64,000 nucleotides of DNA from Candidatus Doudnabacteria bacterium (GCA_031291995.1 JARLHZ010000010.1:37155-101154), one strand, 5' to 3'; counted from the first letter of the stretch, positions 20,838 through 54,242 are shown. Program-made: numbers and translations. The notes: generated by a model not told the origin, from the letters alone.

Positions 20838-21608
20838 TTATTGGTTGTTCAGCAAATCCGGACGGCGTTTTTTTGTGCGCTTCATTGCCTCATCCATTCT
20901 CCATTTTTCTATATTCGCATGGTGCCCGGATAATAAAACTTTCGGCACCTTCAAAATTTTTCTTCGCTTTGTAGGGACGGGTCTAGACCCGCCCCTACCC
21001 AGGGCAGGAATCATCAAAATTTCCGGTTTTGTATACTGCGGAAATTCCAGGCTATTTTCGGAAAAAGATTCTTTATCTGCGGATTCATCCTTGCCCAAAA
21101 TCCCTGACCTCAATCTCATTACCGCTTCGCTGATAACCAACGCGGGCAATTCTCCGCCCATTAAAACATAATCCCCGATGGAGATTTCTTCGTCTACAAA
21201 ACTTCTCACCCGCTCATCAAAGCCCTCGTATCTACCGCAGACAAAAATTAACTCATTAAATTTTGCCAATCGCTGGGCCATTTTTTGGTCAAACTTTTGG
21301 CCCTGGGGTGTTAACAAAATTATACGTGCCTGTGTAGGGGCGGATATTATCCGCCCCCTATGATCAGAGACCGACTTTATCGCTTTATATAAAATATCCG
21401 CGCGTAACACCATACCCACACCGCCGCCATATGGCCGGTCGTCAACAACCTGCCTCTCACCCAAACCAAACGAACGTAAGTTTATCGGCTGAATTTGTAA
21501 AAGCCCTAACTTAATAGCTCTTTTTACAATTCCAAAAGACTCCACAAAATTTTCTATAAATGAGGGAAATAACGTAATAATTTTAATCGATAACTTTTTA
21601 GACCTCAT
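20838..21608 (-). CDS. trmD: tRNA (guanine37-N1)-methyltransferase TrmD carrying two in-frame palindromic insertions
   Basis: TrmD motifs ([13 protein letters not shown]; [13 protein letters not shown]); extra segments [20 protein letters not shown] and IISAPTQAR coincide with the palindromes at 20971-20998 and 21333-21360. Confidence 0.85.
20971..20998. repeat. 28-bp palindrome gtagggacgggtctagacccgcccctac (in-frame in trmD)
   Basis: Near-identical perfect palindrome gtagggacaggtctagacctgtccctac at 54214-54242. Confidence 0.8.
21333..21360. repeat. Palindrome tgtaggggcggatattatccgcccccta (in-frame in trmD)
   Basis: Read directly. Confidence 0.7.
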
Positions 21609-21763
21609 GCAATTATTTTAGTAACTTTCGTGCTCTTTAATATTTGGTAGAGACGTCAATATTATAGCATTAAAATAACCCCGGAACGCCGGCAGCCGCC
21701 GGAAATTTCGGGGTTATTAAATTTATAGATTCCGCGTTAGATCCGCGTGCGGATCCGCGTATC

Positions 21764-22129
21764 TTAGAGTTTGAACTCGTCAATAGACTCTTCGGAACTC
21801 TGGCTCATACCCATCGGGCTGCCCATTTGGCTGCCCTGATGACCCATACCACCGCTCATTTCGCGGCGAGGACCACGGTGAGAACCTTCCGGTTCATAGA
21901 TTTTCAAGTTCACACGGGCTTTATGCTTGGCGCCAACTACGCGCAATAAAGTGCGGATGGCTTTGGCCGTCTGGCCCATGCGGCCAATTACCTGGCCCAT
22001 ATCTTCGGGGTTGAGATGCAGAGTAATTAATACTCCCATTTCATCCACGACGCGTTCGGTCTTTACGTCTTCCGGATGGTCGACAAGAGACTTTACAACG
22101 TATTCAACAAAAGCTTGGTCTTGCTCCAT
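21764..22129 (-). CDS. KH-domain RNA-binding protein (UPF0109/YlqC-like) in the rpsP-trmD cluster
   Basis: GxxG-containing KH motif (VIGRMGQTAKAIRTLL); conserved position between rpsP and trmD. Confidence 0.7.
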   Translation of the reverse strand: MEQDQAFVEYVVKSLVDHPEDVKTERVVDEMGVLITLHLNPEDMGQVIGRMGQTAKAIRTLLRVVGAKHKARVNLKIYEPEGSHRGPRREMSGGMGHQGSQMGSPMGMSQSSEESIDEFKL

Positions 22130-22285
22130 AATAGTGCAATTTCTGTGATAGCGTAATTCTGCTTCGACCTTTTCGTTAAATTAGCGCGAGCTATCTTGGG
22201 GATATTATAGGCGAAAGCGGGCTTAGCTGTCAATTATAAAATCCCCAGATGGGAATCTTCTGGGGATTTAGAATTGAATTCTGAA

Positions 22286-22681
22286 TTATTGGGCCGCGGC
22301 TTCCTCGGGCTTGGCTTGTTCGGCGGGGGCGGCGGGTGTTTCGGCGGAGGCTGGAGTCTCGGCGGAAACCGGCGCGGCTTCCGGTTTTGCGGCGGCTTCG
22401 GCCACTACCGGCTTTTTGGGAATGCTGAAAGCTTTGACTTTCGGACCCGAATGCAAGCCTTTAGTAACAAGCAGGTTGTTTAAAGTTTCGCTGAGGGCAA
22501 CGTGCTGGCCCAGCCAGTGCTTTAACCGGTCTTCTTTCACCTGAAAATATTTCTTGCGCGGATTATAGCTTCCCAAAACTTCCAAAAACTTTTTTTGCAC
22601 CGGCGCGGCTTTTTCCGTAAGCACGATTCTAAAATCGGCCTGGTTCTTTTTACCGGTACGCTGTAAACGAATAATGAGCAT
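22286..22681 (-). CDS. rpsP: 30S ribosomal protein S16 with an Ala/Pro/Glu-rich C-terminal extension
   Basis: MLIIRLQRTGKKNQADFRIVL ... S16 N-terminus; start reassigned to the internal Met (ATG at 22681). Confidence 0.85.
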   Translation of the reverse strand: MLIIRLQRTGKKNQADFRIVLTEKAAPVQKKFLEVLGSYNPRKKYFQVKEDRLKHWLGQHVALSETLNNLLVTKGLHSGPKVKAFSIPKKPVVAEAAAKPEAAPVSAETPASAETPAAPAEQAKPEEAAAQ

Positions 22682-22882
22682 AACTGATAATTTATAATTG
22701 ATAATAAATAACCGATATTGCCAGACATAAAAATCTATAAGCAGCAACTTTAGATTTGAATACCGGCGCTTGAGCGTGCTGATATCTTAACATTTAATGG
22801 AAGAAGCGTCAACCTCAGTATTTCGACATGTACTGATGACAAAACCAATTATCAGGAATAAACTTGGGTTAAGAAGGGCTTT

Positions 22883-23098
22883 ATGATTCACTGTGGCAAC
22901 AATCTCAAAGCCGTCAAAACGATCTACGAGAGGCGTAATGCCGACCAAGCCGGATACGTTAAACTTATTGCGCACGCCGCCACTTGCGCGAGTTGCGCAA
23001 GAAACCTGCAAACGCTAAAAGACGAGGAACTTCGTCAATGTTCAACACCCCAGCCTGTCAAACTCAGGTTTGATGGAAAGGAGAACCGCCGACGATGA
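22883..23098 (+). CDS. Hypothetical small Cys-containing protein (possible zinc ribbon)
   Basis: ORF with Cys4, CxxC (CASC) and Cys52; followed by the terminator at 23117-23160. Confidence 0.3.
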   Translation: MIHCGNNLKAVKTIYERRNADQAGYVKLIAHAATCASCARNLQTLKDEELRQCSTPQPVKLRFDGKENRRR

Positions 23099-23116
23099 TG
23101 TTGGCCACAACGCACG

Positions 23117-23160
23117 AAACCCGCACCAAGCCGAATGTTGTGCGGGTTTCTTATTCCTAA
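23117..23160 (+). terminator. Rho-independent terminator (aaacccgcac ... gtgcgggttt followed by a T-rich tract)
   Basis: Read directly. Confidence 0.6.
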
Positions 23161-23173
23161 TTCCTAATTCCTG

Positions 23174-25792
23174 CTATTTCGCGTACTGCTTAGCCTGATC
23201 CAATTTTACGGAAAGCAATTTACTTACGCCATCATCACCCATCGTAACACCATACAAAATGTTGGCCTGGGTCATGGTTTCGCGGTTGTGGGTAATGGTT
23301 AAAAATTGGGTCTGGTGAGCCAGGGTGCCTAAAATTTGGCCGAAGCGGATGGTGTTGGCGTCATCCAAAGCCGCGTCCACTTCGTCCAAAACCACGCAGG
23401 GGGACGGAAAGCAGGTTAGCAGGCTGCACAGCAGGGCAATGGAGGTCATAGCCCGTTCTCCGCCGGACAGCGCCTGAATGCTGGCCAGTTTCTTGCCCGG
23501 AGGCGTAGCCTTAATATCAATGCCGGAAATCGCGTTGCCGGTATGCTCGTATTTTTGCAAAACTTTTTCTTCAGGCCGCAAATCCTGCGGCTGGTTGTCG
23601 TCGGCTTCCGCTCCGGCTTCCACCGGCAATTCTTCGGGTGGCTCATTTTTTATAACGCTTAAATACCCGCGGCCACCGTTAAACAATACTCGGAAATAAA
23701 ATTCAAATTTTTCGCTAATCTTACGGAACGCCTCGTTAAAAGTATCCTTAATCCGCCCGTCCAAATCATCAATAACCTGGCGCAAATCCGTCATGCCTTT
23801 TTGCAAATCCGCCACCTGCGTGCTCAGATTCTGGTGCCGGGTTTCAGTTTCCTGATATTCTTTAAGTGTTAACTCATCCATTCCGCCGATGGTTTCCAGC
23901 TGATTTTTTAACCTGGCTATTTTGTTTTCCAAATCGTCAGTACTGGTTGCCACTTTGCTTTCCCCCAGCGTTTGCCACTCCGGCTGCCCCAAAGTTTTGA
24001 CTACCTCTTCAGCGAGAAGCTGCAGTTGAGTATCTATCTTGGCTTTTTCAATATTTATTATCGACTCTTTGTCTTTAATTTTGGACAGTTCATCCTGGGC
24101 AAGGCGGAACTGGCCTTCGGCGCCCCTCAAACCAGCCTGCCTTTTTTCCTGTTCGCTGTAATGCAGCTTTAGTTCAGTTTCAACTTTGGCCATTTCCTGG
24201 CCCAATTTGTCAACGTCAGCCTGGATTCTTTTTTCCTCCGACAGTAAATTCTGCCAAAATTCATCGGGAGAACTGCTCTGGACCTTTTTTAGTTCCAAAT
24301 CCAAATGCAACTTTTCCTGCTGCAGAGCGGCCAGTTCGCGCTGTAAAAAGTCGACGGCTATCTTGCCCTTGCTCATTTCCAACTGGGCATTATTGACTTC
24401 CTGGTTTAAAACTTCCTTTTGCTTAAGCAACTGATCCAATTCTTGTTTAACCGCTTCCAAACCCAGCCGCGGGTCAGCCACCGTCTGCTTGGCCGCCTTG
24501 CGGAATCTGGTAAAGCTTTCTTCCATGCTATTAGCCTGGTGTTTTATTTCCTCTAGGTTTACCGCCTGTACCAGCATCTGGCTAAATTTTTGCCAGGCTT
24601 CTTCCAGCACGCGCAATTCCAACTCCACAAGATTCCAGTCTATCTGGGCGGGATTACTCAGTTTTTTTGACAGTTCATCAAGTTTTTTATTGACCGTTTC
24701 CAGGCTTTTAAATTGATCGACAAATTTATTCTCCAGCTGCTTTTGCGTTTCCAGCGTATTTTGAATTTGGCCGGTAACTTCCTGAATTTTTCCATGTTTG
24801 TTGTGGACTTCCACCGTCAGGCTTTGGGCATCGCCGGCCACGGCTGTTTTTTGGCTTTGCATTTTCCCCCGTACCAGGCTCAAATCTTCAAGCAAGCGGT
24901 TTTTTTGCGCCTGGAGTTTGTGGAATTCTTCCTGAATTTTTGCAAACGTTCCGCCGCTTTGCTGCCCCGCCTGTTCCAATCCTTCGGCCTGCTGTCTTAA
25001 ATTTGCGGCCTTGGTTTCGCCCGCTTTTTTATGTTCTTCGATTTCCGACAGCTGTTGCAAAATTTTATCGGAAGTCTCTTTAAATTGCCAAAAACTGCGT
25101 CCGTAAAATTCCCGCCGGTAAATTTTTAATTCCTGTTCCAATTCGGCCCTGGCTTCCAACTTTTTCGCCTGGCGGCGCAAACTTTTTAATCTTGGTTCAA
25201 TTTCGGCGATTAAATCTTCCGCCCTCATTAAATTCTGGGCGGTCTGTTCCAAACGCCTTAAAGTTTTATCGCGCTTTATATAATAATTTTTAACCCCGCT
25301 TGCCTCGTCAACCAGATCTTTTACGCCCGGCGGCCCCTGCATAACCATTTGGTCTATAGTGCCCTGGCCGATTACCGTATAGCGGGATGTGCCGATGTTG
25401 CTTTTTAAAACCAAATCCACAATATCCAAAAGCCTGACTTTATTGCCGTTTATCAAATATTCGCTTTCTCCGCTTCGGTCGATTCGCCGCCCAATGCTGA
25501 CTTCCGAAGCATCCAGAGGTATCCGGTGATCGGAATTATCGAACGTGGCGACAACTTCGGCAAAACCCTGCCTCGTCTTTTTATCGCTGCCCGCAAAAAT
25601 CACGTCATCGCTTTTTTTGCCGCGGATAGCCTTGGCGCTCTGCTCGCCCAAAACCCAGCGCATAGCGTCGGCGACGTTGCTCTTGCCGCTGCCGTTGGGG
25701 CCGACAATCGCAATAATCCCCGCTGAAAATTCCAGCGCGGTTTTTTGGGCGAAACTTTTAAATCCGTGGATTTCGAGGCGTTTTAAATACAT
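23174..25792 (-). CDS. smc: Chromosome segregation protein SMC
   Basis: N-terminal Walker A (GPNGSGKSN), long coiled coils, hinge, C-terminal signature LSGGE and Walker B (VLDEVDAALD). Confidence 0.93.
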   Translation of the reverse strand: MYLKRLEIHGFKSFAQKTALEFSAGIIAIVGPNGSGKSNVADAMRWVLGEQSAKAIRGKKSDDVIFAGSDKKTRQGFAEVVATFDNSDHRIPLDASEVSIGRRIDRSGESEYLINGNKVRLLDIVDLVLKSNIGTSRYTVIGQGTIDQMVMQGPPGVKDLVDEASGVKNYYIKRDKTLRRLEQTAQNLMRAEDLIAEIEPRLKSLRRQAKKLEARAELEQELKIYRREFYGRSFWQFKETSDKILQQLSEIEEHKKAGETKAANLRQQAEGLEQAGQQSGGTFAKIQEEFHKLQAQKNRLLEDLSLVRGKMQSQKTAVAGDAQSLTVEVHNKHGKIQEVTGQIQNTLETQKQLENKFVDQFKSLETVNKKLDELSKKLSNPAQIDWNLVELELRVLEEAWQKFSQMLVQAVNLEEIKHQANSMEESFTRFRKAAKQTVADPRLGLEAVKQELDQLLKQKEVLNQEVNNAQLEMSKGKIAVDFLQRELAALQQEKLHLDLELKKVQSSSPDEFWQNLLSEEKRIQADVDKLGQEMAKVETELKLHYSEQEKRQAGLRGAEGQFRLAQDELSKIKDKESIINIEKAKIDTQLQLLAEEVVKTLGQPEWQTLGESKVATSTDDLENKIARLKNQLETIGGMDELTLKEYQETETRHQNLSTQVADLQKGMTDLRQVIDDLDGRIKDTFNEAFRKISEKFEFYFRVLFNGGRGYLSVIKNEPPEELPVEAGAEADDNQPQDLRPEEKVLQKYEHTGNAISGIDIKATPPGKKLASIQALSGGERAMTSIALLCSLLTCFPSPCVVLDEVDAALDDANTIRFGQILGTLAHQTQFLTITHNRETMTQANILYGVTMGDDGVSKLLSVKLDQAKQYAK

Positions 25793-25799
25793 AAATAAA

Positions 25800-25935
25800 A
25801 TGCCAAATAGCAAATACCAAATTACAAATCAATTCCAAATGTAAAATTTAAAATCAGTTTGCGATAAATGTTGGAAATTTGATATTTGGACATTTGGATT
25901 TTGTTTGATATTTGAAATTTGATACTTGAAATTTA
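25800..25935. repeat. AT-rich simple-repeat tract (atttgatatttgga / aatttgatacttgaaattt units)
   Basis: Same repeat family at 46720-46860 and, in shorter form, inside murF at 57505-57530. Confidence 0.6.
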
Positions 25936-26625
25936 ATACTGATTTTTCTTAAGCGCGTCTTCGGCCGCCGACAGTTCCGCTTCCTGTTTGCTCGGACCGG
26001 TTCCCCGCCCGACCTCTGTTTGCCCGACGTAAGCGGCCACCACAAAAACTTTGTTATGGTCCGGACCCGTTTCGCTGACCACGCCGTAAGTCGGCGTCAC
26101 GCCGTTTTTTTCCTGAATGATTTCCTGTAATTTACTCTTCGGATCAACATAACTGCCGCCGGCAATAATACTTGGCAGTTCGACCAAAACTTCGTTGATA
26201 ATAAATTGTTCGGCCGCTTTATAACCGGCATCCAGGTAGACCGCGCCAATGACCGCTTCAATGCAGTTGGCCAAAATTACCTGCCTGGCCCGGCCGGTAT
26301 CCTTGGCCTCGCCGCGGGACATTTGTAAAAAATTTTCAAAGCCCAATTTCTTGGAAATATCCGAGAGCATTTTATAATTCACCAGGGCGCTGCGAAAATT
26401 GGTCAACTCACCCTCGGGATGGGGATAATTTTTATAGAGATATTCGGTCGCCGCCAGCTCCAAAACGGCGTCGCCCAAAAACTCCAGACGCTCGTTATGG
26501 GGCAAACTAAATTTACGGTTCTCATTCAAATAGGACCGGTGGGTAAATGCCGAGACATAAAGGTCAAGATTGTTGACTTTTACTCCCAAAATTTTTTCTA
26601 GCTCCTGTTTATCAAGTGACGACAT
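25933..26625 (-). CDS. rnc: Ribonuclease III
   Basis: RNase III signature ERLEFLGDAVLELAATEYLY plus a C-terminal dsRBD. Confidence 0.93.
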   Translation of the reverse strand: MSSLDKQELEKILGVKVNNLDLYVSAFTHRSYLNENRKFSLPHNERLEFLGDAVLELAATEYLYKNYPHPEGELTNFRSALVNYKMLSDISKKLGFENFLQMSRGEAKDTGRARQVILANCIEAVIGAVYLDAGYKAAEQFIINEVLVELPSIIAGGSYVDPKSKLQEIIQEKNGVTPTYGVVSETGPDHNKVFVVAAYVGQTEVGRGTGPSKQEAELSAAEDALKKNQY

Positions 26626-26725
26626 CGCGATAATGGCGCAAGAATCACGAATCAGGAATTAAGAATGCTTAATTCGTGGTTCTTGGTTCTTGGGAATTAA
26701 ATTATAATACTTTAAAAAAGTCTCT

Positions 26726-26859
26726 GTGCCCCTCGACTACACCACGCTGCGCGTGATTGCGCTCGGGACACTCGACTCGCTCTGCACTTCTTCGTTGGTT
26801 GAGGCCTCCCAAAGGCCGAAACCACGAGCGAGCTTCGGCGTTAGCCGAAGCGAGTCGAG
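26726..26859. repeat. Structured repeat element V, immediately 3' of tRNA-Val (second copy 59769-59888, 3' of tRNA-Ala)
   Basis: About 130 bp alignable with 59769-59888; two internal hairpins differ by compensatory substitutions (cttcggcg-ttag-ccgaag vs ctttgacg-aaag-tcaaag; ggcctcccaaaggcc vs gccctttagggc). Confidence 0.7.
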
Positions 26860-26934
26860 TGGTGGGCGGCGAAGGAATCGGACCTTCGACCCTTTCTACG
26901 TCAAAGAAATGCTCTACCACTGAGCTAGCCGCCC
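26860..26934 (-). tRNA. tRNA-Val (anticodon GAC)
   Basis: Manual cloverleaf: acceptor gggcggc/gccgccc, D-arm gctc-agtggtag-gagc, anticodon loop ttGACgt, encoded CCA. Confidence 0.8.
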
Positions 26935-26945
26935 AAAAACGATAT

Positions 26946-27713
26946 TTAAATTTTATTGCCCGCCGGGGATACTATAAGCGCCGGCAATTCCTGCCTGACG
27001 GTTTCCGGATCTTTTTTTCTATTTATGGTATCTAAAAATAACAATACCACAAAACAATTCAAAATCGCCGAAAGATAAGCAATTAACACTACCACAGCTG
27101 CCAACAATAACCATATTGTAGCAGAATGTCCCGAAACTGAAAACTCCCTGATTAAATAAAGGTCTCCCAATACCCTGTGGACCAAAGCGTAAGATATGCC
27201 GTGCGCTACAATTAAGATGGCGGCCGCGGCTCCCGCAAACGATATTCTTTTATTCCAGGTGTCCATGGCCAGAGACAGGGCCGACGACAAATTTTGATCG
27301 CACAATGCAATATATAACAATGAAAGGCCTGCGGTGGAAGCCGTCACGGCAAAAACCAGCGTATGCAGCGGCCAAAAAGGGAAAATCCAGCGGGCTAAAA
27401 GCACTACAAAGACAGTCATTAAAATCAGGCCTATACCGGAAACGCTTTGGCTTTTAAAATTGTGCCGCGGCTTATCGGGATTGTTAATAAACTTATATGC
27501 CTCTATATCCTGCCACAACCGAATGGTTAATGGAGGCAGTACTGCCATAACCAGAACCAGCCACATTGCAGAAATATGGTTTAACGATTGCGGTCTGACC
27601 AGCTGGCCAACGGCGGAAAAAGCCCCTGCCTGTAAAATCGCCAAAATCCACCAGCGCGGAAACCGGCTGGTGGATAAAATAGACTCGAGTAAAATAGGTT
27701 TCAATTTCGGCAT
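26946..27713 (-). CDS. Hypothetical polytopic membrane protein
   Basis: Six or more TM helices; no motif recognised. Confidence 0.4.
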   Translation of the reverse strand: MPKLKPILLESILSTSRFPRWWILAILQAGAFSAVGQLVRPQSLNHISAMWLVLVMAVLPPLTIRLWQDIEAYKFINNPDKPRHNFKSQSVSGIGLILMTVFVVLLARWIFPFWPLHTLVFAVTASTAGLSLLYIALCDQNLSSALSLAMDTWNKRISFAGAAAAILIVAHGISYALVHRVLGDLYLIREFSVSGHSATIWLLLAAVVVLIAYLSAILNCFVVLLFLDTINRKKDPETVRQELPALIVSPAGNKI

Positions 27714-27733
27714 ATCCGGATTTTAAACAGCCA

Positions 27734-30164: not shown

Positions 30165-30365
30165 AATAAAGGTTCCCCGCCGCAAGCAGCGGGGTATTAC
30201 TGCAAGGAACAGCTGCATCTTCGCGGCAAGCCGCGAGGTATTGAACCTTTCTTTCCGCCAAAGGCGGATCCGCCTCCGGCGGAAGCTCCCTGCCTGGCGG
30301 CAGGCAGGCCTCGGCTCGCTTGTCCTTTGAAAGACAAAGGACAGACTCGCCTACGTCGCGAATAA
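30165..30365. repeat. Structured repeat element L between the pilin-like array and tRNA-Leu (second copy 59608-59760)
   Basis: Shared blocks aataaaggttccccgccgcaagc..ggggtattactgcaa and cctcggctcgct ... ctacgtcgc(g/t)aataaaa; internal hairpins differ (gtcctttgaaagacaaaggac vs cggccataaatggccg); minus-strand end forms a terminator-like GC hairpin plus U-run; carries an extra 28-bp GGATCC palindrome absent from the other copy. Confidence 0.65.
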
Positions 30366-30374
30366 AAACTACAA

Positions 30375-32230: not shown

Positions 32231-32244
32231 CCCCTCTCTGTACC

Positions 32245-45634: not shown

Positions 45635-45761
45635 AAATTTAGCTTAGCTTATAACAATTGGTTAATAACCGGTAACTGTTATAAGTTATTTATTATAAAT
45701 TACCGATCATAATTATTTTATACGAACGTTCACCTATTGTCAAACAATGCTTGTGGATAAC

Positions 45762-46718
45762 CTACTTTGGAGCGGGAATAGATGTCGGCAAAGCAGGCGC
45801 GAAAAATGACACATTATTAAGAGGCTCTTTGCTCTTACCCATTGGCCCCAAATTTTGGCCATCCAGCCAAACTACCGTGGCGCCGGCATTGGACGTGGAA
45901 ATAACTATTTTTTGAGCCGCGGTAAAAACTTTACTGTCGCCTGAATTAAAACTGAACGTTTGGGAAGATTGATCGTCGATTGCGGCGTTTAGGGTTACAG
46001 CCGCGCTAAGATCAATTTTTAATGACAGCGGGGTACTGCTGGCTACCGCGGAGCTCGTTATATTTATACTTTGGCTGGCCGTTTTCCCAAATCGGTTGCT
46101 GGCGGTAACCACTATGGTTTTTGGTCCCGGAGTCAGACCGATTTGCGTTTCAAATTTTCCTTTTGCGTCCACAAAAACATTTTCCTTGTTTACCGTAACC
46201 TGGGCAGACGGGTCGGTTTGCCCGGCAACGTCGGTGGAAGATCCGGAAATGACCGAGTTGTTTTGCGGTGAAAAAACCGTCAGGCCCGGCGTTTTATTTA
46301 TCGATAAAACCTGCCAAACTATGTAGGCCACGGTAAGAGCGACAAATAGCATACTGCCGACTAAACTAATAATCTTCGGAGTCACCACCATCTTCCCCAA
46401 AAACCGCCGCTGCCAGGCCGCGGTGGCCTGTCCGGCCGAACGCGCAATCTGCTGGCTTATGCCTTTTTCCTTTTTAAATTGAGCGACCAATTCGTCAGGG
46501 TCGGCCGAGTATAAAACGGCAAGCTGCCGCAAAAAACCAAAAACATAAACATCGGCCGGCAGGCTTTTAAATTCCCCCAGCTCCAGGGCTTCCAAAAATT
46601 TAAGCTTGATGCCTGTTTTTTTTGAAACTTCTTCCAGCGTTAATTCCAAACTGACGCGAGCGGACTTTAAAAATTCGCTTAAAATTTCCGTCTGAATTTT
46701 TTTTCGTTCAAATAACAT
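45762..46718 (-). CDS. RodZ-like cytoskeleton protein (XRE HTH, TM helix, extracellular domain)
   Basis: N-terminal HTH (LTLEEVSKKTGIKLKFLEALE), single TM helix, S/T-rich C-terminal domain. Confidence 0.6.
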   Translation of the reverse strand: MLFERKKIQTEILSEFLKSARVSLELTLEEVSKKTGIKLKFLEALELGEFKSLPADVYVFGFLRQLAVLYSADPDELVAQFKKEKGISQQIARSAGQATAAWQRRFLGKMVVTPKIISLVGSMLFVALTVAYIVWQVLSINKTPGLTVFSPQNNSVISGSSTDVAGQTDPSAQVTVNKENVFVDAKGKFETQIGLTPGPKTIVVTASNRFGKTASQSINITSSAVASSTPLSLKIDLSAAVTLNAAIDDQSSQTFSFNSGDSKVFTAAQKIVISTSNAGATVVWLDGQNLGPMGKSKEPLNNVSFFAPALPTSIPAPK

Positions 46719-46719
46719 G

Positions 46720-46860
46720 CGGGCAATATCAAATTACAAATGTTAAATTACAAACAAAATCCAAATGTCAAAAATCAAATTACTCCGGCATTATAATAAA
46801 TTTGATTTTGATATTTGGATTTTGGTCTTGATTTGAAATTTTAAATTTGTAATTTTTAAT
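46720..46860. repeat. AT-rich simple-repeat tract (caaattacaaatg / atttgattttgatatttggattttg units), same family as 25800-25935
   Basis: Read directly. Confidence 0.6.
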
Positions 46861-46862
46861 TA

Positions 46863-49139
46863 TTATTGTTGTTCCTCTTCAATTCCATACTCCGCTTTTT
46901 CATCGGGCGGAATTACACCATAAACTTCGCGCGGTTTGGCGCCCTCGCCGGGGCCGATAATCCCCTGCCCTTCCAAAATATCCAGCAATCTGGCGGCCCG
47001 CGCGTAACCGACCCGCAAGCGGCGCTGGAGTAATGAAGCCGACGCCTTTCCCGCTCGCTTAACTTCTTCTATTGCTTCGGACAATAACGGATCGTCATCG
47101 TCTCCCCCGCCCTCGCCTTCTCCACCCCCAATACCCAATGCCCGTTTGGGTTTTTCCACCACATCGTCGTTATAAATAACCGCGCCAACCTGCGCTTTAA
47201 AGAAGTCCACGACTTGTTTAACTTCCTTTTCGCCAATATAAGCTCCCTGGATGCGTTTGGGTTTGTTGTATTCGGCGGATGTGTAAAGCATATCGCCGTT
47301 GCCCAAAAGTTTTTCCGCCCCCGAACTGTCTAATATCGTCCGGCTATCGATTTGTGAAGCGACCGCAAAAGCAATGCGGCTGGTAATGTTGGCTTTTATC
47401 AGGCCCGTAATAATATCCACGCTGGGGCGCTGGGTGGCCAGAACCAAATGGATGCCGACGGCGCGCGCCATTTGCGCCAATCTGACAATGGCCGATTCCA
47501 CGTCGGCCTGGGCTACAGCCATCAGATCAGCCAATTCGTCCACCAAAATCACTATATAAGGCAAAGCCAGACCTGCGGCTTCGTTGTATTCCAAAATATT
47601 CCGCTTGCCGGCTTCGGACAAAAGTTTGTAACGGCGATCCATTTCCGCCACCGCCCACTTTAAGGCGTTAACGGCTTTTTCGTTTTCGGTAATTACCGGC
47701 GTCAGCAAATGAGGGATGCCGTTATACAAATTCAGTTCCACCCTTTTCGGGTCCACAACAATAAATTTTACGTCCTGCGGCGTATTGCGGTAAAGCAAAC
47801 CAATAAACAAACTGTTAATGGCCACGCTCTTGCCCGTACCCGTGGCGCCGGCTATCAGCAAGTGCGGCATTTTGGCCAAATCCACCACCATGGGATGGCC
47901 GGCCACGTCGCGGCCCAAAGCCAGGCCGAGTTTGCTCTTGTGGTTTACAAAGTCTGTGGTCTGCATAACTTCGCGCAGGCGCACAATTGCCGTGGATTTG
48001 TTTGGGACTTCAATGCCGACCAAGGCCTTGCCCGGAATGGGTAATTCCATGCGGATGGAATGGGCGGCCAAAGACAGCGCCAAATCGTTCTGCAGCGCGG
48101 CGATTTGCGAAAGTTTTACTCCCACCGCCGGCCTTAAAGTATATTGCGTAACCGTCGGCCCCACGTTGACCTCGCCCATTTCCACGTCTATGCCAAAATC
48201 CGCCAACGTCTTTTTTATGATGGCCACGTTTACTTCGATGTTGCCGCTGTCCACTTCCGCGTGATTGTCGTCAAGTAAATCAAAACCCGGCAGTTTCCAA
48301 TCCTTGCGGTCTTCCAGGGTGATGGCTTCTATTTTTAACCCGTCAACCTTGCCCGCGTTAATTACCTTGGTAATCGGGGTAATGGGCGATTTGGTTTTAA
48401 TATTGGTGTTATTGTTATCGTGATCGTTATCATTTATCCTAGGATTTTTATCCAAAACCCTTTCTTCCACAAATCCTTCTTTGCCCATGGCGTTGATTTT
48501 CAAGACGGCGGGAGCTGCCTTGTCCGCCGCAGCCTTGGCGGCGGCGGATATTTCTTCCTTAGCGTTATCTTCCGACTCGGGTTTTTTGGCAAAAAATTGG
48601 CGCAGGGAAAAATCAAATATTATTAACAGCGAAATAATCGCCAAGGCCGTAAGAATCAAACTCCCCGCCCAAAAACCCAAAAAATTAAACAGGGGCTGGG
48701 AAAAAATCGCGCCCAAATACCCGCCGCCGCGGCCTTCCATGGCCAAATCAAAAGCGCTTAAATCGCTGCTCAAATAAAAAATGTGAACTAATCCGGCAAT
48801 GCTGCCCGCCAGGAGGACGGCGCCAAAATAGACCCGCCAGTAAAATCCGCCGCCGCGGCCGTCTTTTTCCAAATCTTCTTTATAGAGGGAAATGGCAACA
48901 CTTAATAAAATCAGCGGCACGGCATATGCCATTAAGCCGAAGCCCAGCGACAGGGAGCGGAACAAATTGACGCCCAGACTTCCTGCCACGCCGGCAATGC
49001 TTAAGACCACTATTAAAGCCAAAACTATAAAGATTACCACCGCTATCCCGCGCTTGGTTTCACCTGAAAGATTTAACGATGGAGTCGGTATTTTTCTGTC
49101 TTCTTTATCTCTGTCTTTGCCTTTTTTTCTTTTAGCCAT
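46863..49139 (-). CDS. ftsK: DNA translocase FtsK/SpoIIIE
   Basis: N-terminal TM domain, low-complexity linker, motor domain with Walker A GATGTGKS, C-terminal winged-helix gamma domain. Confidence 0.95.
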   Translation of the reverse strand: MAKRKKGKDRDKEDRKIPTPSLNLSGETKRGIAVVIFIVLALIVVLSIAGVAGSLGVNLFRSLSLGFGLMAYAVPLILLSVAISLYKEDLEKDGRGGGFYWRVYFGAVLLAGSIAGLVHIFYLSSDLSAFDLAMEGRGGGYLGAIFSQPLFNFLGFWAGSLILTALAIISLLIIFDFSLRQFFAKKPESEDNAKEEISAAAKAAADKAAPAVLKINAMGKEGFVEERVLDKNPRINDNDHDNNNTNIKTKSPITPITKVINAGKVDGLKIEAITLEDRKDWKLPGFDLLDDNHAEVDSGNIEVNVAIIKKTLADFGIDVEMGEVNVGPTVTQYTLRPAVGVKLSQIAALQNDLALSLAAHSIRMELPIPGKALVGIEVPNKSTAIVRLREVMQTTDFVNHKSKLGLALGRDVAGHPMVVDLAKMPHLLIAGATGTGKSVAINSLFIGLLYRNTPQDVKFIVVDPKRVELNLYNGIPHLLTPVITENEKAVNALKWAVAEMDRRYKLLSEAGKRNILEYNEAAGLALPYIVILVDELADLMAVAQADVESAIVRLAQMARAVGIHLVLATQRPSVDIITGLIKANITSRIAFAVASQIDSRTILDSSGAEKLLGNGDMLYTSAEYNKPKRIQGAYIGEKEVKQVVDFFKAQVGAVIYNDDVVEKPKRALGIGGGEGEGGGDDDDPLLSEAIEEVKRAGKASASLLQRRLRVGYARAARLLDILEGQGIIGPGEGAKPREVYGVIPPDEKAEYGIEEEQQ

Positions 49140-49284
49140 ATAAATTTGATGTTTGTTCCCTATTTTCCGTAGTATTCCGTAATCTTTTAATTCTTATTCC
49201 GTAGTTTATTTTAGCACTTTTTTGCCTAACTTAAAACCCCGCCAAAATTTTCACCCCGGATAGTTATAAGATTGCCTAAATAAA

Positions 49285-49500
49285 TTATTTTTCAAAATCC
49301 TCGGCTTTTAAATCTGCCTGCCTTAAAATGGAACTAAAAGTCCCTTTTGGTATTTGTTTCCTGCCGGCCGGGACAATCACGGTTAATATCCGGTTGCCAG
49401 TCTTACGATACTTAATATGACTGCCCTTCTGCGAGGCAAACAAAAAGCCCTGGTTTTCCAGGACTTTTAAAATCTCTTTTGATGAATATAATTTAGGCAT
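49285..49500 (-). CDS. hicA: HicA-family toxin (second copy)
   Basis: SSKEILKVLENQGFLFASQKGSHIKYRK ... VPAGRKQIPKGTFSSILRQADL. Confidence 0.75.
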   Translation of the reverse strand: MPKLYSSKEILKVLENQGFLFASQKGSHIKYRKTGNRILTVIVPAGRKQIPKGTFSSILRQADLKAEDFEK

Positions 49501-49711
49501 ATGCTACGGACATTTTGGTGAGTTCTGCCTTTTGGATTTTGCTTATTTTTGGCGTTTTTGCGTCTTCAAAATATAGTTCCAAAGCTTCCTGTAAATTTTT
49601 TATAGCTTCCCTTTTAGTCTTGCCAAAGCTGGAAACATCCACGTTCAAACACTGGGCAACATAAAATTTGTCTTCTTTCCAAACTGCCGATTGTAAATTA
49701 ATTTTAGCCAT
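49493..49711 (-). CDS. hicB: HicB-family antitoxin (short form, second copy)
   Basis: YVAQCLNVDVSSFGKTKREAIKNLQEALELYFED; 8-nt overlap with hicA. Confidence 0.7.
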   Translation of the reverse strand: MAKINLQSAVWKEDKFYVAQCLNVDVSSFGKTKREAIKNLQEALELYFEDAKTPKISKIQKAELTKMSVAYA

Positions 49712-49933
49712 AAAATAATAATTATTTTACCATTTCTTCCAATTCGCTTAAATCGACTGCCAGTTTAGATTTTTGCACAATCAACTTTAGATGTTTATAA
49801 AAACTTTGACTCACTTTTTTTAATTCAAAATATCTCTCTTCCGAGATACTGTCTAATGACGTCTTTTTTATCTGCATAAAATTTCCTTAATCACCATATA
49901 AGTATAAAACCGCATTAATAGGAAGTCAACATC

Positions 49934-49985
49934 AATTTAAAATCCCGCCCCTTTTCAGAGGCGGGATTGGTTTGTTGTTTTATCC
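49934..49985. terminator. Bidirectional rho-independent terminator (atcccgcc ... ggcgggat)
   Basis: Read directly. Confidence 0.65.
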
Positions 49986-50014
49986 TATTCTCTATTCGCT
50001 AAGCCCTATTCACT

Positions 50015-50605
50015 CTACAGACCCTTAACTTTGACCTTCTTCGTCTTCGCCTTTGCGGCTTTCGGGATAATTATAGTCAGAATCCCGTCTTTTAGGTCGG
50101 CCTCGATGCTTTCGCTTTCAATGTCCACGGGGATGATGACCGAGCGGGAAAAATTACCCCAGTAGCATTCCTGGTAAAAATAATCGTCCTGGGGAATCAT
50201 TTCGTCTTTGCGGCGGCTGCCTTTGACCGTAAGCATGTCGTTGGCCACGGTAATGTCTATGTCGTCAGGCCGGACTCCGGCAATGGTGGACTTGATAATC
50301 ACATTATCCTTGGTCTGGTACATGTCTATATTTAACTGGCCTTCAAAATCGCTGAGCCATTCTTCGTTGCCATTGCCGTTGGGCTGGGCTGATTCTTTGG
50401 TTTGTGTTGTTTGTGTTTGCTGCCTGGGCATAATCACTTCTTCTTCAACTTCCAGTTCGCGTTCTTCCACCGCGTCATCCGGAGACAGTTCTTCGGCTTC
50501 CACAACCTCTTCCTGGTATTGTGAAACAGGCTGGATCATTGGCTCTTCCGTCACGCTACCCCCCATTATCTTTCCAAAAAACGAAGTTTTTTCTTTCTTA
50601 GGCAT
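50015..50605 (-). CDS. Hsp20/alpha-crystallin family small heat-shock protein with an N-terminal acidic extension
   Basis: ACD block (FEGQLNIDMYQTKDNVIIKSTIAGV ... GILTIIIPK). Confidence 0.8.
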   Translation of the reverse strand: MPKKEKTSFFGKIMGGSVTEEPMIQPVSQYQEEVVEAEELSPDDAVEERELEVEEEVIMPRQQTQTTQTKESAQPNGNGNEEWLSDFEGQLNIDMYQTKDNVIIKSTIAGVRPDDIDITVANDMLTVKGSRRKDEMIPQDDYFYQECYWGNFSRSVIIPVDIESESIEADLKDGILTIIIPKAAKAKTKKVKVKGL

Positions 50606-50728
50606 AAATTTTTACCTGTTCCCCCGTCAAACTTCCCGGGGTAAATTAATCTTATGCTGTTATCTTAGAACAATAAATATATTGCGTCAAATGGATTTTT
50701 TGAGGTTTTTTCCGCCCCGTGCAACCTG

Positions 50729-51808
50729 TTAAACCAACCGCCCCACAGCCAGGGCGGCGGCGTCTTTAGGAAATAATACGTCAAGTTTCGGGTTCGATTT
50801 TAGGGCGGCCCTAAAACTTCCCGAGCGTACTTCGTCTATAGCCTGTTCGGCTATCTTGCCGTATTTGGGCATGACCAAATGGTTGTGCAAAAGATAATCA
50901 AAATTATATTGCTCCTGCCCGGGCAAGAGATGCGAAATTATCATCGGCAAATTCCAGCGCAGCGCTTCACTGACAGACAGCCCGCCGGGCTTGGTAATGA
51001 ACACGTCGGCTATGGCATACAACTCGTCCATTGCGGGATAAAATCCCAGCACAGTAACGTTGCCGGCAGAGGCCAGCTTGCTTTTTAGTTGCCTGTATAT
51101 AATTTCATTTTTCCCGCAAACGGCAAAAACTTTTATGTTCGGTTGATTGGCAAACTGGGCGACCAGATTCTCGTCCACCCCTGTTCCCAATGAACCGCTG
51201 CCGATTAATATAACTTTATCCCGCGGGCCGACGCTCAACTTATTTTTTATTGAGCTGATGTCTATTTCAACTTCCGGCTTTAGCGTCATTCCGCAGACAA
51301 AAATTTTATTCTCCGGCACGCCGAGCTTAACCATTTGTACTTTTTGCTCGGCAATGTTCGCCAAATAAAAATCTGCCTGCGGGTAAAGCCAGTAGCGATG
51401 CAGATGGAAATCGGAAAAGGCGATACCGAACAATCCTTTGTACAAATTTCGTTTTTTAAGATACGCAATGACCGCCGAAGCCGTGGTTTGAGTGGTTATA
51501 ATTATGTCCGGCTTAAACTCTTCCACGTAACTTTGCGTGAGCTTGTGATTAAAACCCGCTATAAAAACCCGAAAGGGCAAAATAAGAAAGTGACCATAAT
51601 CGTAAAGCCATCCCCAAACAAAAGGCAGACGGTTGTTTATAAAACTATGGATGGTCGTGACGGACTTTTCGAACATCCCCTTCTGGACAGATCCGATATC
51701 GTCCGACTTAACCGTAAATCCGTTAGCTTCCAGTTGCGTGCCAATATTCTCCGCAATGCTTTTGTGCCCAAGACCCACCGAAGTATATAAAATGAGAACT
51801 TTTTTCAT
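50729..51808 (-). CDS. GT28-family glycosyltransferase, MGDG-synthase/UgtP(YpfP)-like
   Basis: N-terminal KKVLILYTSVGLGHKSIAENI resembles the UgtP start (ILTASYGNGH); about 360 aa two-domain GT-B size. Confidence 0.6.
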   Translation of the reverse strand: MKKVLILYTSVGLGHKSIAENIGTQLEANGFTVKSDDIGSVQKGMFEKSVTTIHSFINNRLPFVWGWLYDYGHFLILPFRVFIAGFNHKLTQSYVEEFKPDIIITTQTTASAVIAYLKKRNLYKGLFGIAFSDFHLHRYWLYPQADFYLANIAEQKVQMVKLGVPENKIFVCGMTLKPEVEIDISSIKNKLSVGPRDKVILIGSGSLGTGVDENLVAQFANQPNIKVFAVCGKNEIIYRQLKSKLASAGNVTVLGFYPAMDELYAIADVFITKPGGLSVSEALRWNLPMIISHLLPGQEQYNFDYLLHNHLVMPKYGKIAEQAIDEVRSGSFRAALKSNPKLDVLFPKDAAALAVGRLV

Positions 51809-51875
51809 GGGACAATATCTACTGATTTTTTCCGGCTTTCGATGTACATCAGCGCAAAGAATTCCGGGATTACCC

Positions 51876-53234
51876 CTATGGGTGGAATAATTTAATTATT
51901 GCGTCAAATTCTTTGTTATTCAATAATTTCTTTTCCAATACCAATTCACGGATGGTTTTGTTGCTATTGACGGCTTCCTTTACTAATTCACTGGCTTGGT
52001 CATAGCCGAGTTTTGGACTGAGCAGGGTGGCGTAGGCTGTGGATTTTTCCAGGAGTTCTTTACAACGCGCGCGGTCGGCTTTTATGCCGTCCACGCATTT
52101 TTTGGCAAATTGCAAAATTAATTCATCCATCAATTTTAAACTTTCAATTAACCGGTCGGTCATTATTGGCAGCATTACTCCCAGTTCCAGCTGAGCCCCT
52201 TCGGCTCCGTGCTCAATGGTCAAATTATTGCCCGAGACCAAAAAGTACAGCTGGCTAACGGCTTCAAGTAAAACAGGATTCACTTTGCCCGGCATAATCG
52301 ACGAGCCGGCCTGCAGCTCCGGAATCATGATTTCTCCCAATCCCCCTTTGGGCCCGGCCGAGAGCCAGCGCAGGTCGTTGGAAATTTTGGACAGGTCGAC
52401 GCAAAACGCGACCAACGCCTGTGACATCCAGACAAAGTCGCTGTCACTACTGGTTTGAGGCATAAAGTTAGCCGCGGGCTTTAGCGGCAGTTTGGTAATT
52501 TTATCGAGTTCAATGTATAACTGCTTAATGTATTTTGGAGAGGCGTTTATGGAATTACCGACCGCCGTGCCGCCTAAATTCAGCTCCAACAGATTCTCCA
52601 TAGCTTTGCGGATTCGCTGCTGGCCGCGCCTGACGTATGCTTCGTACGAGGCAAATTCGCTTCCCAAGGTAATAGGTACCGCGTCCTGCAGATGCGTGCG
52701 ACCAAGTTTTACTATTGATGAAAAATCGCGGGATTTTTTTTGCAGGCTTAGCGCCAGTACATCCGTTGTCGCGAGCAATTTTTGCGCCAAACGGTAAGCG
52801 GCAATCTTAAATGCCGACGGCATAACATCATTTGTCGAATGCGACATGTTAACATGGTCGTTGGGATGCACCAGCGGAAGCTCTCCCCTTTTGAGGGGAG
52901 ATGCCCGAAGGGCAGAGAGGTTGCCTTGCAAAATCTCAGTAGCCCGGGCGGCAATTACCTCGTTGGCATTCATGTGGTTTGAAGTCCCGGCGCCGCCCTG
53001 AAATGCCGGCAGGACAAATTGCTCCCAGTGTTTGCCTTCCAGTATCTCATCGCAGGCCTTCACAATCGCGGTTTTCCTGGCATTATCCAATTCTCCCACT
53101 TTATTATGGGCAATGGCCGCGGCTTTTTTAATTTCCACTAATGCCAGCAAAAACTCTCTGGGAGCTTTACGGAAACTGAACGGAAAATTCTTAATCGCCT
53201 TTTCCGTTTGCGCACCGTAATATTTTTTATTCAT
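51876..53234 (-). CDS. Class II fumarase/aspartase family lyase (FumC/AspA) with an in-frame hairpin-element insertion
   Basis: Signature GSSIMPGKVNP; HPNDHVNMSHSTND block; extra LSALRASPLKRGELPL encoded by the element at 52878-52920. Confidence 0.85.
   Translation of the reverse strand: MNKKYYGAQTEKAIKNFPFSFRKAPREFLLALVEIKKAAAIAHNKVGELDNARKTAIVKACDEILEGKHWEQFVLPAFQGGAGTSNHMNANEVIAARATEILQGNLSALRASPLKRGELPLVHPNDHVNMSHSTNDVMPSAFKIAAYRLAQKLLATTDVLALSLQKKSRDFSSIVKLGRTHLQDAVPITLGSEFASYEAYVRRGQQRIRKAMENLLELNLGGTAVGNSINASPKYIKQLYIELDKITKLPLKPAANFMPQTSSDSDFVWMSQALVAFCVDLSKISNDLRWLSAGPKGGLGEIMIPELQAGSSIMPGKVNPVLLEAVSQLYFLVSGNNLTIEHGAEGAQLELGVMLPIMTDRLIESLKLMDELILQFAKKCVDGIKADRARCKELLEKSTAYATLLSPKLGYDQASELVKEAVNSNKTIRELVLEKKLLNNKEFDAIIKLFHP
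52878..52920. repeat. Hairpin mini-element (ctcccc-tttt-gagggga; cccgaagggc) in-frame in the fumC/aspA-like gene
   Basis: Same family as 20088-20150 and 56944-57070. Confidence 0.65.
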
Positions 53235-53260
53235 CGGATTATTTTAATGGATTTAAACAG

Positions 53261-53290
53261 TTGTATTATAGACCATTTTTCAGGTATAAT
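53261..53290 (+). promoter_or_regulatory. Promoter of tRNA-Ser (TTGTAT-18-TATAAT)
   Basis: Read directly; the tRNA 5' end lies 14 nt downstream. Confidence 0.55.
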
Positions 53291-53303
53291 AAACACCAGC
53301 CGC

Positions 53304-53393
53304 GGAGAGGTCGCATAGTGGTCTAGTGCGCTGGTTTCGAAAACCAGTAGGGGCGCAAGCCTCTCGAGGGTTCGACTCCCTCCCTCTCCGCCA
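53304..53393 (+). tRNA. tRNA-Ser (anticodon CGA), type II
   Basis: Acceptor ggagagg/cctctcc, anticodon stem ctggt/accag with loop ttCGAaa, long variable arm, T-arm gaggg-ttcgact-ccctc, CCA encoded. Confidence 0.8.
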
Positions 53394-53428
53394 CAGTCGC
53401 TCGCAGCGGCGTGGCTCCGCCAGAAAGT

Positions 53429-53456
53429 TAAACCCCCGAATTCGGGGGTTTTAGAT
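53429..53456. terminator. Terminator hairpin (aacccccgaattcgggggtt plus T-run) shared by tRNA-Ser (+) and rnhB (-)
   Basis: Read directly. Confidence 0.75.
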
Positions 53457-54212
53457 TGACCGCAAATTTTTGCAAAAACTTTTACGATGAACCGACGACA
53501 AGCCGTTTTGGAGAATCATTGTTCGATGAAACAAAGTACCGTAACCTTTGTGCTGGGCAAAGTTGTAGATTGGGTAGTCCTGATGAATTTTGGTCATAAG
53601 CCGATCGCGATAAACTTTCGCGATTATAGAGGCGGCGGCAATCGAAAGAATTTTATTGTCACCGTCTACTACGGCTTCCTGGTCAATATCAAAATTGGGG
53701 ATAGTAAATTTGCCATCGATAACCAAAAATGGTCTTTTCGTGCCTTTGTAGTGCAGGCCCTCGGCCTGCTTTTTCTTTTGGGGCAGGCCATGGGCCTGCA
53801 CTACATGAGAAAATAATAACCCTTCAACTGCCTTGCGCATTGCCAGCAATGTCGCGTTGTGAATATTTATTTCGTCAACTATTTCCTGCGAAACTTGCCC
53901 GATGCTCCAAGCGAGCGCCTGCTCTTTAATAATAGAGGATAATTCTTCGCGCTTTTTAACGGAAAGTAATTTGCTATCGCGCACACCCTGCTTCATGTCC
54001 CATGTTTCAAGATTCATGATTACCGCCCCGGCCACCACCGGTCCGGCCAGACACCCGCGTCCGACTTCGTCGCAGCCGATAACCATGTGATAACCATCGG
54101 ATATTTTTTTCTGTTCGTAGCGAAAATTCATAGGTTTAATGTCAAACAAGATTTCTTGCAAATCCGTTTCACCCTTTTCTGGCTTAACACCATCAAAGCG
54201 AAGATGAAACAC
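53451..54212 (-). CDS. rnhB: Ribonuclease HII with an in-frame palindromic insertion (N-terminal extent uncertain)
   Basis: VIGCDEVGRGCLAGPVVAGAV catalytic N-terminus, DSK ... motif; 21-aa insert VVQAHGLPQKKKQAEGLHYKG encoded by the nested palindrome at 53748-53810. Confidence 0.85.
   Translation of the reverse strand: MFHLRFDGVKPEKGETDLQEILFDIKPMNFRYEQKKISDGYHMVIGCDEVGRGCLAGPVVAGAVIMNLETWDMKQGVRDSKLLSVKKREELSSIIKEQALAWSIGQVSQEIVDEINIHNATLLAMRKAVEGLLFSHVVQAHGLPQKKKQAEGLHYKGTKRPFLVIDGKFTIPNFDIDQEAVVDGDNKILSIAAASIIAKVYRDRLMTKIHQDYPIYNFAQHKGYGTLFHRTMILQNGLSSVHRKSFCKNLRSI
53748..53810. repeat. Nested palindrome gtagtgcaggccc-tcggcctgc ... ggcaggcca-tgggcctgcactac, in-frame in rnhB
   Basis: Related copy gtagtgcgggccacgggcctgcactac at 58418-58445 (intergenic). 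Confidence 0.7.
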
Positions 54213-54213
54213 A

Positions 54214-54242
54214 GTAGGGACAGGTCTAGACCTGTCCCTACG
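54214..54242. repeat. Perfect 28-bp palindrome gtagggacaggtctagacctgtccctac (intergenic, rnhB-ddl)
   Basis: Same family as the trmD in-frame copy at 20971-20998. Confidence 0.8.

Follow-up and report, generated by a model that had tools for sequence, protein, structure and literature searches.

The enzymes associated with repetitive extragenic palindromes (REPs), named TnpA_REP or RayT (REP-associated tyrosine transposase, RAYT), are HuH/Y1 single-strand DNA nucleases and relatives of the IS200 transposase. We examined three related palindromes in a 64,000-nt stretch of DNA (the window) from a metagenome-assembled genome (MAG) of Candidatus Doudnabacteria (GCA_031291995.1), a member of the Patescibacteria or Candidate Phyla Radiation (CPR); two of these palindromes lie in-frame within trmD and the third lies between ddl and rnhB. 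All three are members of an already described class, the double-foot REPs (GTAG...CTAC) whose cognate enzymes are subclass 2.4 RayT proteins. Quentin, Siguier, Chandler and Fichant (2018, BMC Genomics 19:475, PMC6006769) assigned double-foot REPs to TnpA_REP subclass 2.4 (Bertels group 4), in which the REP carries a 5' GT[AG]G and a 3' C[TC]AC foot, REPs are found in-frame in tnpA_REP between the HuH motif and the tyrosine (Y), and the enzyme carries the motifs NH[IFV]H, WQ and YIxNNP. The elements described here resemble these REPs in their paired feet on a long G+C-rich stem, in having copies in RayT between HuH and Tyr, in the motifs of the RayT proteins concerned, and in a distribution scattered over many phyla. 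They differ from this precedent in their host, a CPR MAG, whereas the survey lists Cyanobacteria, Bacteroidetes and 'various phyla' with Patescibacteria unmentioned, and also in that no RayT is visible in the window and many copies in low-GC metagenome contigs are intragenic.

Three other systems are close enough to be compared. According to the available portion of its text, the paper of Di Nocera, De Gregorio and Rocco (2013, BMC Genomics 14:522, PMC3733652) describes a GTAG-tagged REP superfamily of 24 families, most copies of which lie downstream of genes, between co-directional open reading frames (ORFs), while some lie wholly inside ORFs and add ∼10-30 aa to known proteins, including UvrD helicases, tRNA synthetases and pseudouridine synthases. 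Our elements share with that superfamily, as it is described there, the short palindromes, the GTAG tag, copies situated wholly within ORFs and hosts of the UvrD-type helicase, tRNA synthetase and pseudouridine synthase kinds, but the tag described there is unpaired at one end, whereas GTAG is here paired with CTAC; within the same portion, the string 'GTAGGG' is absent from the main text and trmD is not among the intragenic hosts quoted. The E. coli REPs, in bacterial interspersed mosaic elements (BIMEs), and their TnpA_REP (RayT, YafM; subclass 2.2) form the only system with biochemical evidence of cleavage (PMC6006769). That system has in common with ours a GTAG foot, a hairpin and a HuH/Y1 enzyme that recognises the foot, but differs in its subclass 2.2 motifs (DHLH / WE / YIHYNP), in its bulged, imperfect stems with a single foot, and in REPs that are essentially extragenic and gathered in BIME clusters. 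Finally, the Rickettsia palindromic elements (RPEs) lead to the same outcome, in that housekeeping proteins of a small genome tolerate selfish palindromic DNA in their reading frames; among them, RPE-4 and RPE-6 are classed as REPs with a CGTC tag and lack a dedicated transposase, as given in the available portion of PMC3733652. By their description, the RPEs stand apart from the elements studied here, as RPE-1 makes longer inserts and ours are 27-28 bp with GTAG and no CGTC tag. Double-foot GTAG REPs of subclass 2.4 RayT and in-frame intragenic REPs are already known; what these palindromes add is a CPR host, trmD as the gene that carries them, and documented recurrent occupancy at two loops of TrmD. 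A literature search on REP or RAYT together with Patescibacteria or CPR returned nothing relevant, and a full-text search for the string GTAGGGGCGG returned only unrelated papers on eukaryotic promoters.

All three palindromes of the window (Table 1) are real and related, as originally predicted, and chance would be expected to yield none. They comprise 27-28 bp, with stems of 12-14 bp and 10-14 paired positions per element. At the trmD site that we call site B, 13 of 14 positions are paired, and the one that is not forms a G.T wobble when the sense strand of trmD is considered; the site A palindrome has a 10-bp perfect core and one bulged base (a 1-nt bulge). The intergenic copy is indeed perfect, but the end assigned to it in the original prediction, 54242, is one base too far. 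The GTAG foot is found on both strands of the site B and intergenic copies, and at site A it is GTAG on the + strand and mutated to ATAG on the sense strand. When folded as single strands, all three elements beat 200 of 200 shuffles each (z = -3.7 to -6.5), with DNA hairpin energies of -11.3 to -12.8 kcal/mol (-12.1 kcal/mol, z = -3.7, for site B; -12.8 kcal/mol, z = -6.5, for the intergenic copy), and the consensus, with up to three mismatches allowed, matches the window twice, compared to no match in 100 shuffles. Counting two further GTAG...CTAC palindromes of different sequence, the window holds five such elements, of which two are intragenic. Half-site matches at 16099, 58991 and 53347 were set aside as unrelated, the last of them falling inside a tRNA. 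A scan of the window with Rfam 15 at the gathering score reported six tRNAs only, and no family overlapping the palindromes.

Table 1. Palindromes and genes of the window (positions counted from its first nucleotide)
Feature	Coordinates	Strand	Sequence	Remarks
REP copy, TrmD site B	20971-20998		GTAGGGACGGGTCTAGACCCGCCCCTAC	28-bp double-foot palindrome
REP copy, TrmD site A	21334-21360		GTAGGGGCGGATATTATCCGCCCCCTA	degenerate double-foot palindrome, GGCGGATAxTATCCGCC subfamily
Intergenic REP copy	54214-54241		GTAGGGACAGGTCTAGACCTGTCCCTAC	perfect 28-bp palindrome
GTAG...CTAC palindrome of different sequence, 53 nt	55449-55501		GTAGCGTGCC...GGCACGCTAC	23/26 positions paired
GTAG...CTAC palindrome of different sequence, 27 nt	58418-58444		GTAGTGCGGGCCACGGGCCTGCACTAC	double-foot architecture
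trmD, tRNA (m1G37) methyltransferase	20838-21608	-		PDB TrmD chains, E = 1.6e-57; PF01746
rnhB, RNase HII	53451-54131	-		PF01351, E = 1.9e-33; downstream of the intergenic REP copy
ddl, D-Ala-D-Ala ligase	54249-55433	-		PF07478, PF01820; start MTKNIGVFFG at 55433
Mur-ligase gene	56813-58396			
alpha/beta-hydrolase gene	58454-59209			
ftsK	46863-49139			
'First family' palindrome	57536-57565			no GTAG tag; within the Mur-ligase ORF
'First family' palindrome	48523-48548			no GTAG tag; within ftsK
'First family' palindrome	30253-30284			no GTAG tag
AT-rich inverted repeat	26639-26692			intergenic; long, imperfect
AT-rich inverted repeat	17637-17702			intergenic; long, imperfect

The product of the host gene is 100% identical to a protein named TrmD from a Candidatus Doudnabacteria MAG, and both intragenic palindromes are read in-frame within it. 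On the sense (-) strand the site B copy reads GTAGGGGCGGGTCTAGACCCGTCCCTAC and is translated in frame +2 as (G)RGGSRPVPT, at TrmD residues ∼203-212, while the site A copy reads ATAGGGGGCGGATAATATCCGCCCCTAC and encodes 10 aa, residues 83-92. Alignment with PDB TrmD chains bears out the expectation that reference proteins lack the extra segments, as do most close orthologues: S. aureus and H. influenzae TrmD show an 18-aa gap at site B, and the PDB references a gap of 6-8 aa at site A. The original prediction of an extra in-frame segment is therefore correct, but the ∼20 aa that it ascribed to the trmD palindrome is an overstatement, as the palindrome's own share is 9-10 aa. Compared with 119 close orthologues, the residues that are extra at site B are only 203-211 (LGRGGSRPV, 9 aa), that is, the palindrome itself; these columns are filled in only 8 of 120 orthologue sequences, and the remainder of the site B loop is an extension common to ∼100 of the 120. 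The site A palindrome sits in a loop whose length varies within the clade. In the AlphaFold2 model, the site A loop lies between helix 70-80 and strand 94-105 (pLDDT ∼56) and strands 197-201 and 216-220 form a hairpin whose tip carries site B (pLDDT ∼60), so that both sites are predicted to be surface loops, modelled with low confidence.

The palindromes are not unique to the window. To find relatives of the wider family we scanned genomes, one per species (596 Gb), with the pattern GTAGGGRCRG-N(4-12)-CYGYCCCTAC, and obtained at least 120 loci in many phyla, where our own arithmetic gives a chance expectation of tens of hits; the hosts listed include Chloroflexota, Patescibacteria, Desulfobacterota, Clostridia, Bacteroidota, Cyanobacteria, Acidobacteriota, Planctomycetota, Omnitrophota and others. 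Two properties argue that these matches are not due to chance: 125 of the 127 matches have a spacer of 7-10 nt, where 4-12 nt were permitted, and palindromic symmetry continues into the interiors, as in GTAGGGGCGGGTTTGAAACCCGCCCCTAC and GTAGGGACAGGTCGCGACCTGTCCCTAC. These copies are depleted from long ORFs, with 46% lying under an ORF of ≥450 nt compared to 91% of random positions, and such avoidance is typical REP behaviour. The site A element occurs in its perfect 27-nt form, GTAGGGGCGGATATTATCCGCCCCTAC, at one locus (L117) and in a near form at two others (L010 and L075). A metagenome scan for GTAGGGRNRGGTCTAGACCYNYCCCTAC, which represents the TCTAGA subfamily of the window, gave 69 loci, mainly of low G+C content (median 41%), and at least 47 of them hold the exact 28-mer of the window's intergenic copy. 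The double-foot arrangement is found in all copies of the window and in all 197 non-redundant related copies.

The symmetry of the TCTAGA subfamily extends to positions at which the pattern imposed nothing. Complementary arms at the three pattern-free positions are seen in 68 of 69 copies; of the 7 distinct variants, which differ in their stems, 6 are perfect (arms ACAGG/CCTGT, AAGGG/CCCTT, GCGGG/CCCGC, GTGGG/CCCAC, GAGGG/CCCTC and ACGGG/CCCGT); with 16 combinations allowed at the free stem positions, a variant would be complementary by chance in 1/16 of cases. At least 120 contigs of IMG/VR (L201-L320), viral or proviral, also carry palindromes of these families (cores GGGTTTTAAACCC, GGTCGCGACC and GGTTCGCGAACC), including a 32-nt variant, GTAGGGGCGGTGCTGCCCTGTGCCGCCCCTAC, with a non-palindromic 12-nt loop, which occurs 27 times and in both orientations. 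Viral contigs are thus a possible route of these families between phyla.

We also noted copies in which feet or half-sites are duplicated. At three metagenome loci (L127 ∼7992-8039, L139 ∼92-139 and L168 ∼3185-3232) the 28-mer is nested in extra copies of its own feet, in the layout cggtagggac-GTAGGGAC...GTCCCTAC-tggtccctac, and several RayT proteins contain tandem half-repeats, such as VGTGRDAASVGTGRDAASVGTGRDLSL in P0225. Such duplication may be the trace of a process of cutting and rejoining, or of slippage.

The distribution of copies bears directly on the idea that the palindromes are functional hairpins (a terminator, an mRNA stabiliser or a translational pause site) that evolved and were selected where they stand and were never inserted. 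This idea draws on three observations. The intergenic copy begins 7 nt 3' of the ddl stop codon (54249-54251), 82 nt 5' of the rnhB start, and is the only copy to give a lax terminator-like match, on the - strand with the tail TGTGTTTCAT, both trmD copies being intragenic; the mismatch at site B becomes a G.U wobble on the mRNA strand; and a compensatory change maintains the stem in one TrmD orthologue (L199, below). However, the terminator scan of the window finds 3 sites, not significantly more than the shuffle mean of 2.0, and most TrmD orthologues lack the elements. Moreover, identical 28-mers in at least 47 unrelated contexts, and in at least 20 different proteins, are impossible to obtain by independent evolution. 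The copy distribution therefore largely refutes local origin, and we consider it highly improbable.

Many independent genes carry the 28-mer in-frame. The identical sequence is read through in 20 host proteins identified by Pfam and encoded on different contigs: PurL, a UvrD/PD-(D/E)XK helicase-nuclease, PNPase, ProRS, an ELP3-like radical SAM protein, PurA (twice), ComEC, a class II aminoacyl-tRNA synthetase, Der, DprA, Map, GyrA, Dus, ThiG and glycosyltransferases are among them. The share of intragenic copies is large in the low-GC metagenome contigs. Only frames 0 and +2 are used by the intragenic 28-mer, and the third frame holds both TAG triplets. These hosts, together with the presence of the TCTAGA subfamily at site A in one TrmD orthologue (L123) and at site B in the window, support the suggestion that this is a dispersed family whose copies occupy different sites in different genomes. 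In a few pairs of contigs the 28-mer occupies the same position of the same gene (L132/L185 in PurA, L136/L149, L143/L182 in ThiG, and L160/L189), with flanks that are related but not identical, from which it follows that insertions, once arisen, are inherited within lineages.

Flanking direct repeats are at control level across 196 copies (for example, 4 versus 3.7 for 3-mers), giving no target-site duplication. There is no strong target motif; the only bias, a mild preference for T at -1 and A at +1, lengthens the palindrome further. We weighed these results against the view that the palindromes are miniature elements of another class, mobilised by a DDE transposase, such as miniature inverted-repeat transposable elements (MITEs) or relatives of the RPEs. 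The behaviour of RPEs, short palindromes in-frame in housekeeping genes of a reduced genome (as recounted in the available portion of PMC3733652), is similar to what we see. Yet the 27-28 bp elements have no internal non-repeat segment, the flanking repeats do not exceed the control, the tag is GTAG and not the CGTC that the same portion gives for RPE-4 and RPE-6, and the neighbouring genes are Y1 genes, not genes for DDE transposases, so that there is very little chance that this view is correct. Membership of the MITEs, which measure 70-300 bp, was rejected for the absence of an internal segment and of a target-site duplication signal.

The neighbouring Y1 genes link the family to RayT. Our initial tblastn queries, E. 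coli RayT and IS608 TnpA in approximate sequence, gave only two weak matches, but these led to RayT genes at two loci (L041 and L106), which were next used as queries; in both, the palindrome lies in-frame within the small ORF, directly after a PNH[LV]HGI motif. The RayT-like ORFs match PF01797 (Y1_Tnp), as seen in L106. With these queries, tblastn detects a Y1 homologue (E = 1e-7 to 1e-29) at 16 of the 69 metagenome loci. At 10 of these 16 the RayT gene itself contains the 28-mer, in-frame and immediately behind the HuH motif (PNH[FLVI]HGI), where it is translated as VGTGLDLSLQ or RDRSRPVPT; at the other 6 the palindrome lies 5' of the gene or nearby. The proteins carry the subclass 2.4 motifs NHxH / WQ / YIxNNP, for example PNHLHGII...WQRNYWEH...YIINNP in L041 and PNHFHGIL...WQRSFYDH...YIRDNP in L131. 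A database search with one RayT protein returned 1,473 relatives, many of which bear the name RayT or REP-associated tyrosine transposase; Patescibacteria, Parcubacteria, Microgenomates or Roizmanbacteria are the source of many. By a strict motif, at least 67 of 115 RayT homologues hold a REP-derived peptide after HuH, of the VGTG[LR]DLSL or the RDRSRPVPT type following PNHxH. At the level of the family, the REPs are therefore statistically linked to a RAYT/TnpA_REP gene, in the arrangement called a REPtron.

The two TrmD loops are occupied differently among orthologues. At site A, the window, L124, L199, L200 and L121 share the GGCGGATAxTATCCGCC element, which has the same 1-nt bulge and an identical codon position in all five; in L199 it has undergone a compensatory change from G:C to A:T, and in L121 its left arm has decayed. 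The same site holds a perfect GTAGGGGAGGGTCTAGACCCTCCCCTAC in L123, which is the TCTAGA subfamily that occupies site B in the window, an inverted REP doublet in L122, and a palindrome of a family without a GTAG tag in L197. Site B holds a decayed GGTCGCGACC copy in L122 and an insert of ∼105 nt bounded by GTAGG...CCCTAC in L121, and is empty in L123, L124, L197, L198, L199 and L200.

Other repeats were seen at the same places. The untagged family of L197, which we call the 'first family' (TCCGCCAAAGGCGGA / TCCGCCTTTGGCGGA and relatives), has three members in the window (Table 1) and occurs at both TrmD hot-spot loops in orthologues, giving such peptides as GGSASGG, AFAKAS and PASPAGG. Non-palindromic peptide motifs also recur at both loops among the TrmD sequences P0002-P0120, for example KVESGKLKVK/KVKSGKLKVR, KGLRAKS and FQISNSKYQIKSK/QNPKQILNPK. 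These suggest colonisation of the two loops by additional families of short DNA repeats. Syntenic orthologues also differ greatly in length: in the comparison of L121-L124 with the window (19812-20819 and neighbours), RluD-like proteins have 335, 336, 358 and 439 aa, YmdB 264 versus 336 aa, and NusA 384 versus 418 aa, so that other housekeeping genes of the clade probably also carry variable insertions.

We conclude that the three palindromes are very likely GTAG-tagged double-foot REP copies, partners of subclass 2.4 RayT, for which we propose the following mechanism. Because the 5' GTAG foot is complementary to the 3' CTAC foot, both DNA strands form the same hairpin. RayT would bind this hairpin where the DNA is single-stranded, such as in the template of the lagging strand, read the GTAG foot, and cut and rejoin the DNA, and this would either seed new copies or swap copies at existing feet. 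Most copies would land or survive between genes, like the copy near ddl, where they could form a 3' stem-loop on the transcript. An intragenic copy would survive only if harmless, that is, if it is read in one of the two of three frames that avoid the two TAG triplets, if its length keeps the frame and if it falls in a tolerant surface loop; both TrmD copies would satisfy all these conditions and so persist as 9-10 extra residues. Given the association with RayT genes and the precedent of known systems, we infer that RayT moves these elements; the insertion in TrmD is presumably neutral, and a RayT-REP system probably is, or was, active in this genome.

Several observations weigh against this conclusion. 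The 64-kb window shows just three copies of this sequence family, so that a high copy number in this genome is conjectural. No RayT gene is present in the window, by tblastn and by a scan for the HuH/WQ/Y motifs, nor in the four syntenic loci of relatives, 5-20 kb long (L121-L124). The best NCBIfam match of the RayT-like ORFs, NF047646 ('REP-associated tyrosine transposase'), scores 59 bits, under its cut-off of 80 bits, and the subclass assignment therefore rests on the motifs and on the REP-in-gene arrangement. The bulge common to the five site A orthologues fits old vertical inheritance as well as repeated insertion, and a neighbour-joining tree of TrmD, although it scatters the carriers, is poorly resolved and star-like, so that one old insertion followed by losses and replacements is inseparable from repeated insertion at site A. 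Transposition of REPs has been demonstrated mechanistically for no RayT (PMC6006769).

Some of these points favour a different account, in which REP-like palindromes are not moved by RayT at all, but are spread or renewed by host processes (hairpin-templated repair or template switching, gene conversion between copies, or horizontal transfer by phages), RayT genes being merely good landing sites. Self-templated correction would be expected to produce the near-perfect symmetry that almost all variants show, and the missing target-site duplication, the lack of a strong target motif, the same families on at least 120 IMG/VR viral contigs and a window without RayT are all in keeping with it, as is the state of the literature, in which the mechanism of REP dissemination is still unknown (PMC6006769). 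However, template switching leaves unexplained how an identical GTAG-footed 28-nt sequence came to lie in unrelated genes and phyla, and the 16 of 69 copies in or beside one small gene family coincide with a family known to bind and cut GTAG hairpins (PMC6006769). We therefore think it unlikely that host processes without RayT account for the palindromes, and prefer movement by RayT.

The 53-nt GTAG...CTAC palindrome fills the spacer between alr and ddl, leaving 2 nt on the alr side, after the stop codon, and 15 nt on the ddl side, ahead of the ATG (55433), and folds with -20.9 kcal/mol (z = -6.4), so that ddl is flanked on each side by a double-foot palindrome. Its double-foot architecture is the same, but with its different sequence it is only a possible member of the trmD/ddl family. 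The 27-nt palindrome lies in the spacer between the alpha/beta-hydrolase and Mur-ligase genes, with a hairpin of -12 kcal/mol (z = -3.9); both palindromes are thus in spacers of one cell-wall gene cluster (alr-ddl / Mur-ligase). The two AT-rich inverted repeats (for example CAAGAATCACGAATCAGGAATTAAG / CTTAATTCGTGGTTCTTGGTTCTTG) probably represent another type of repeat, with terminator-like hairpins.

The results extend the range of RayT-associated double-foot REPs to the Candidate Phyla Radiation and add an essential tRNA methyltransferase to the hosts that tolerate them. They also provide a rule for annotation: peptides such as VGTGLDLSLQ, RDRSRPVPT or xRGG...APT in metagenome proteins mark REP DNA and not protein function. 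As a tentative and rather doubtful extension, the RayT-REP system of the CPR and two or more other families of short repeats might jointly be a main source of lineage-specific loop insertions in essential proteins, with the TrmD loops being recolonised, REPs being swapped like cassettes at their GTAG/CTAC feet, and the hairpin being kept by compensation in coding sequence. If this were true, the compensatory upkeep of a hairpin in coding DNA would imply either a role at the DNA or RNA level or a self-correcting mechanism. With their empty, filled, decayed and replaced loops, the TrmD orthologues form a compact natural experiment on the gain, decay and replacement of REPs, and could help to explain how REPs spread.

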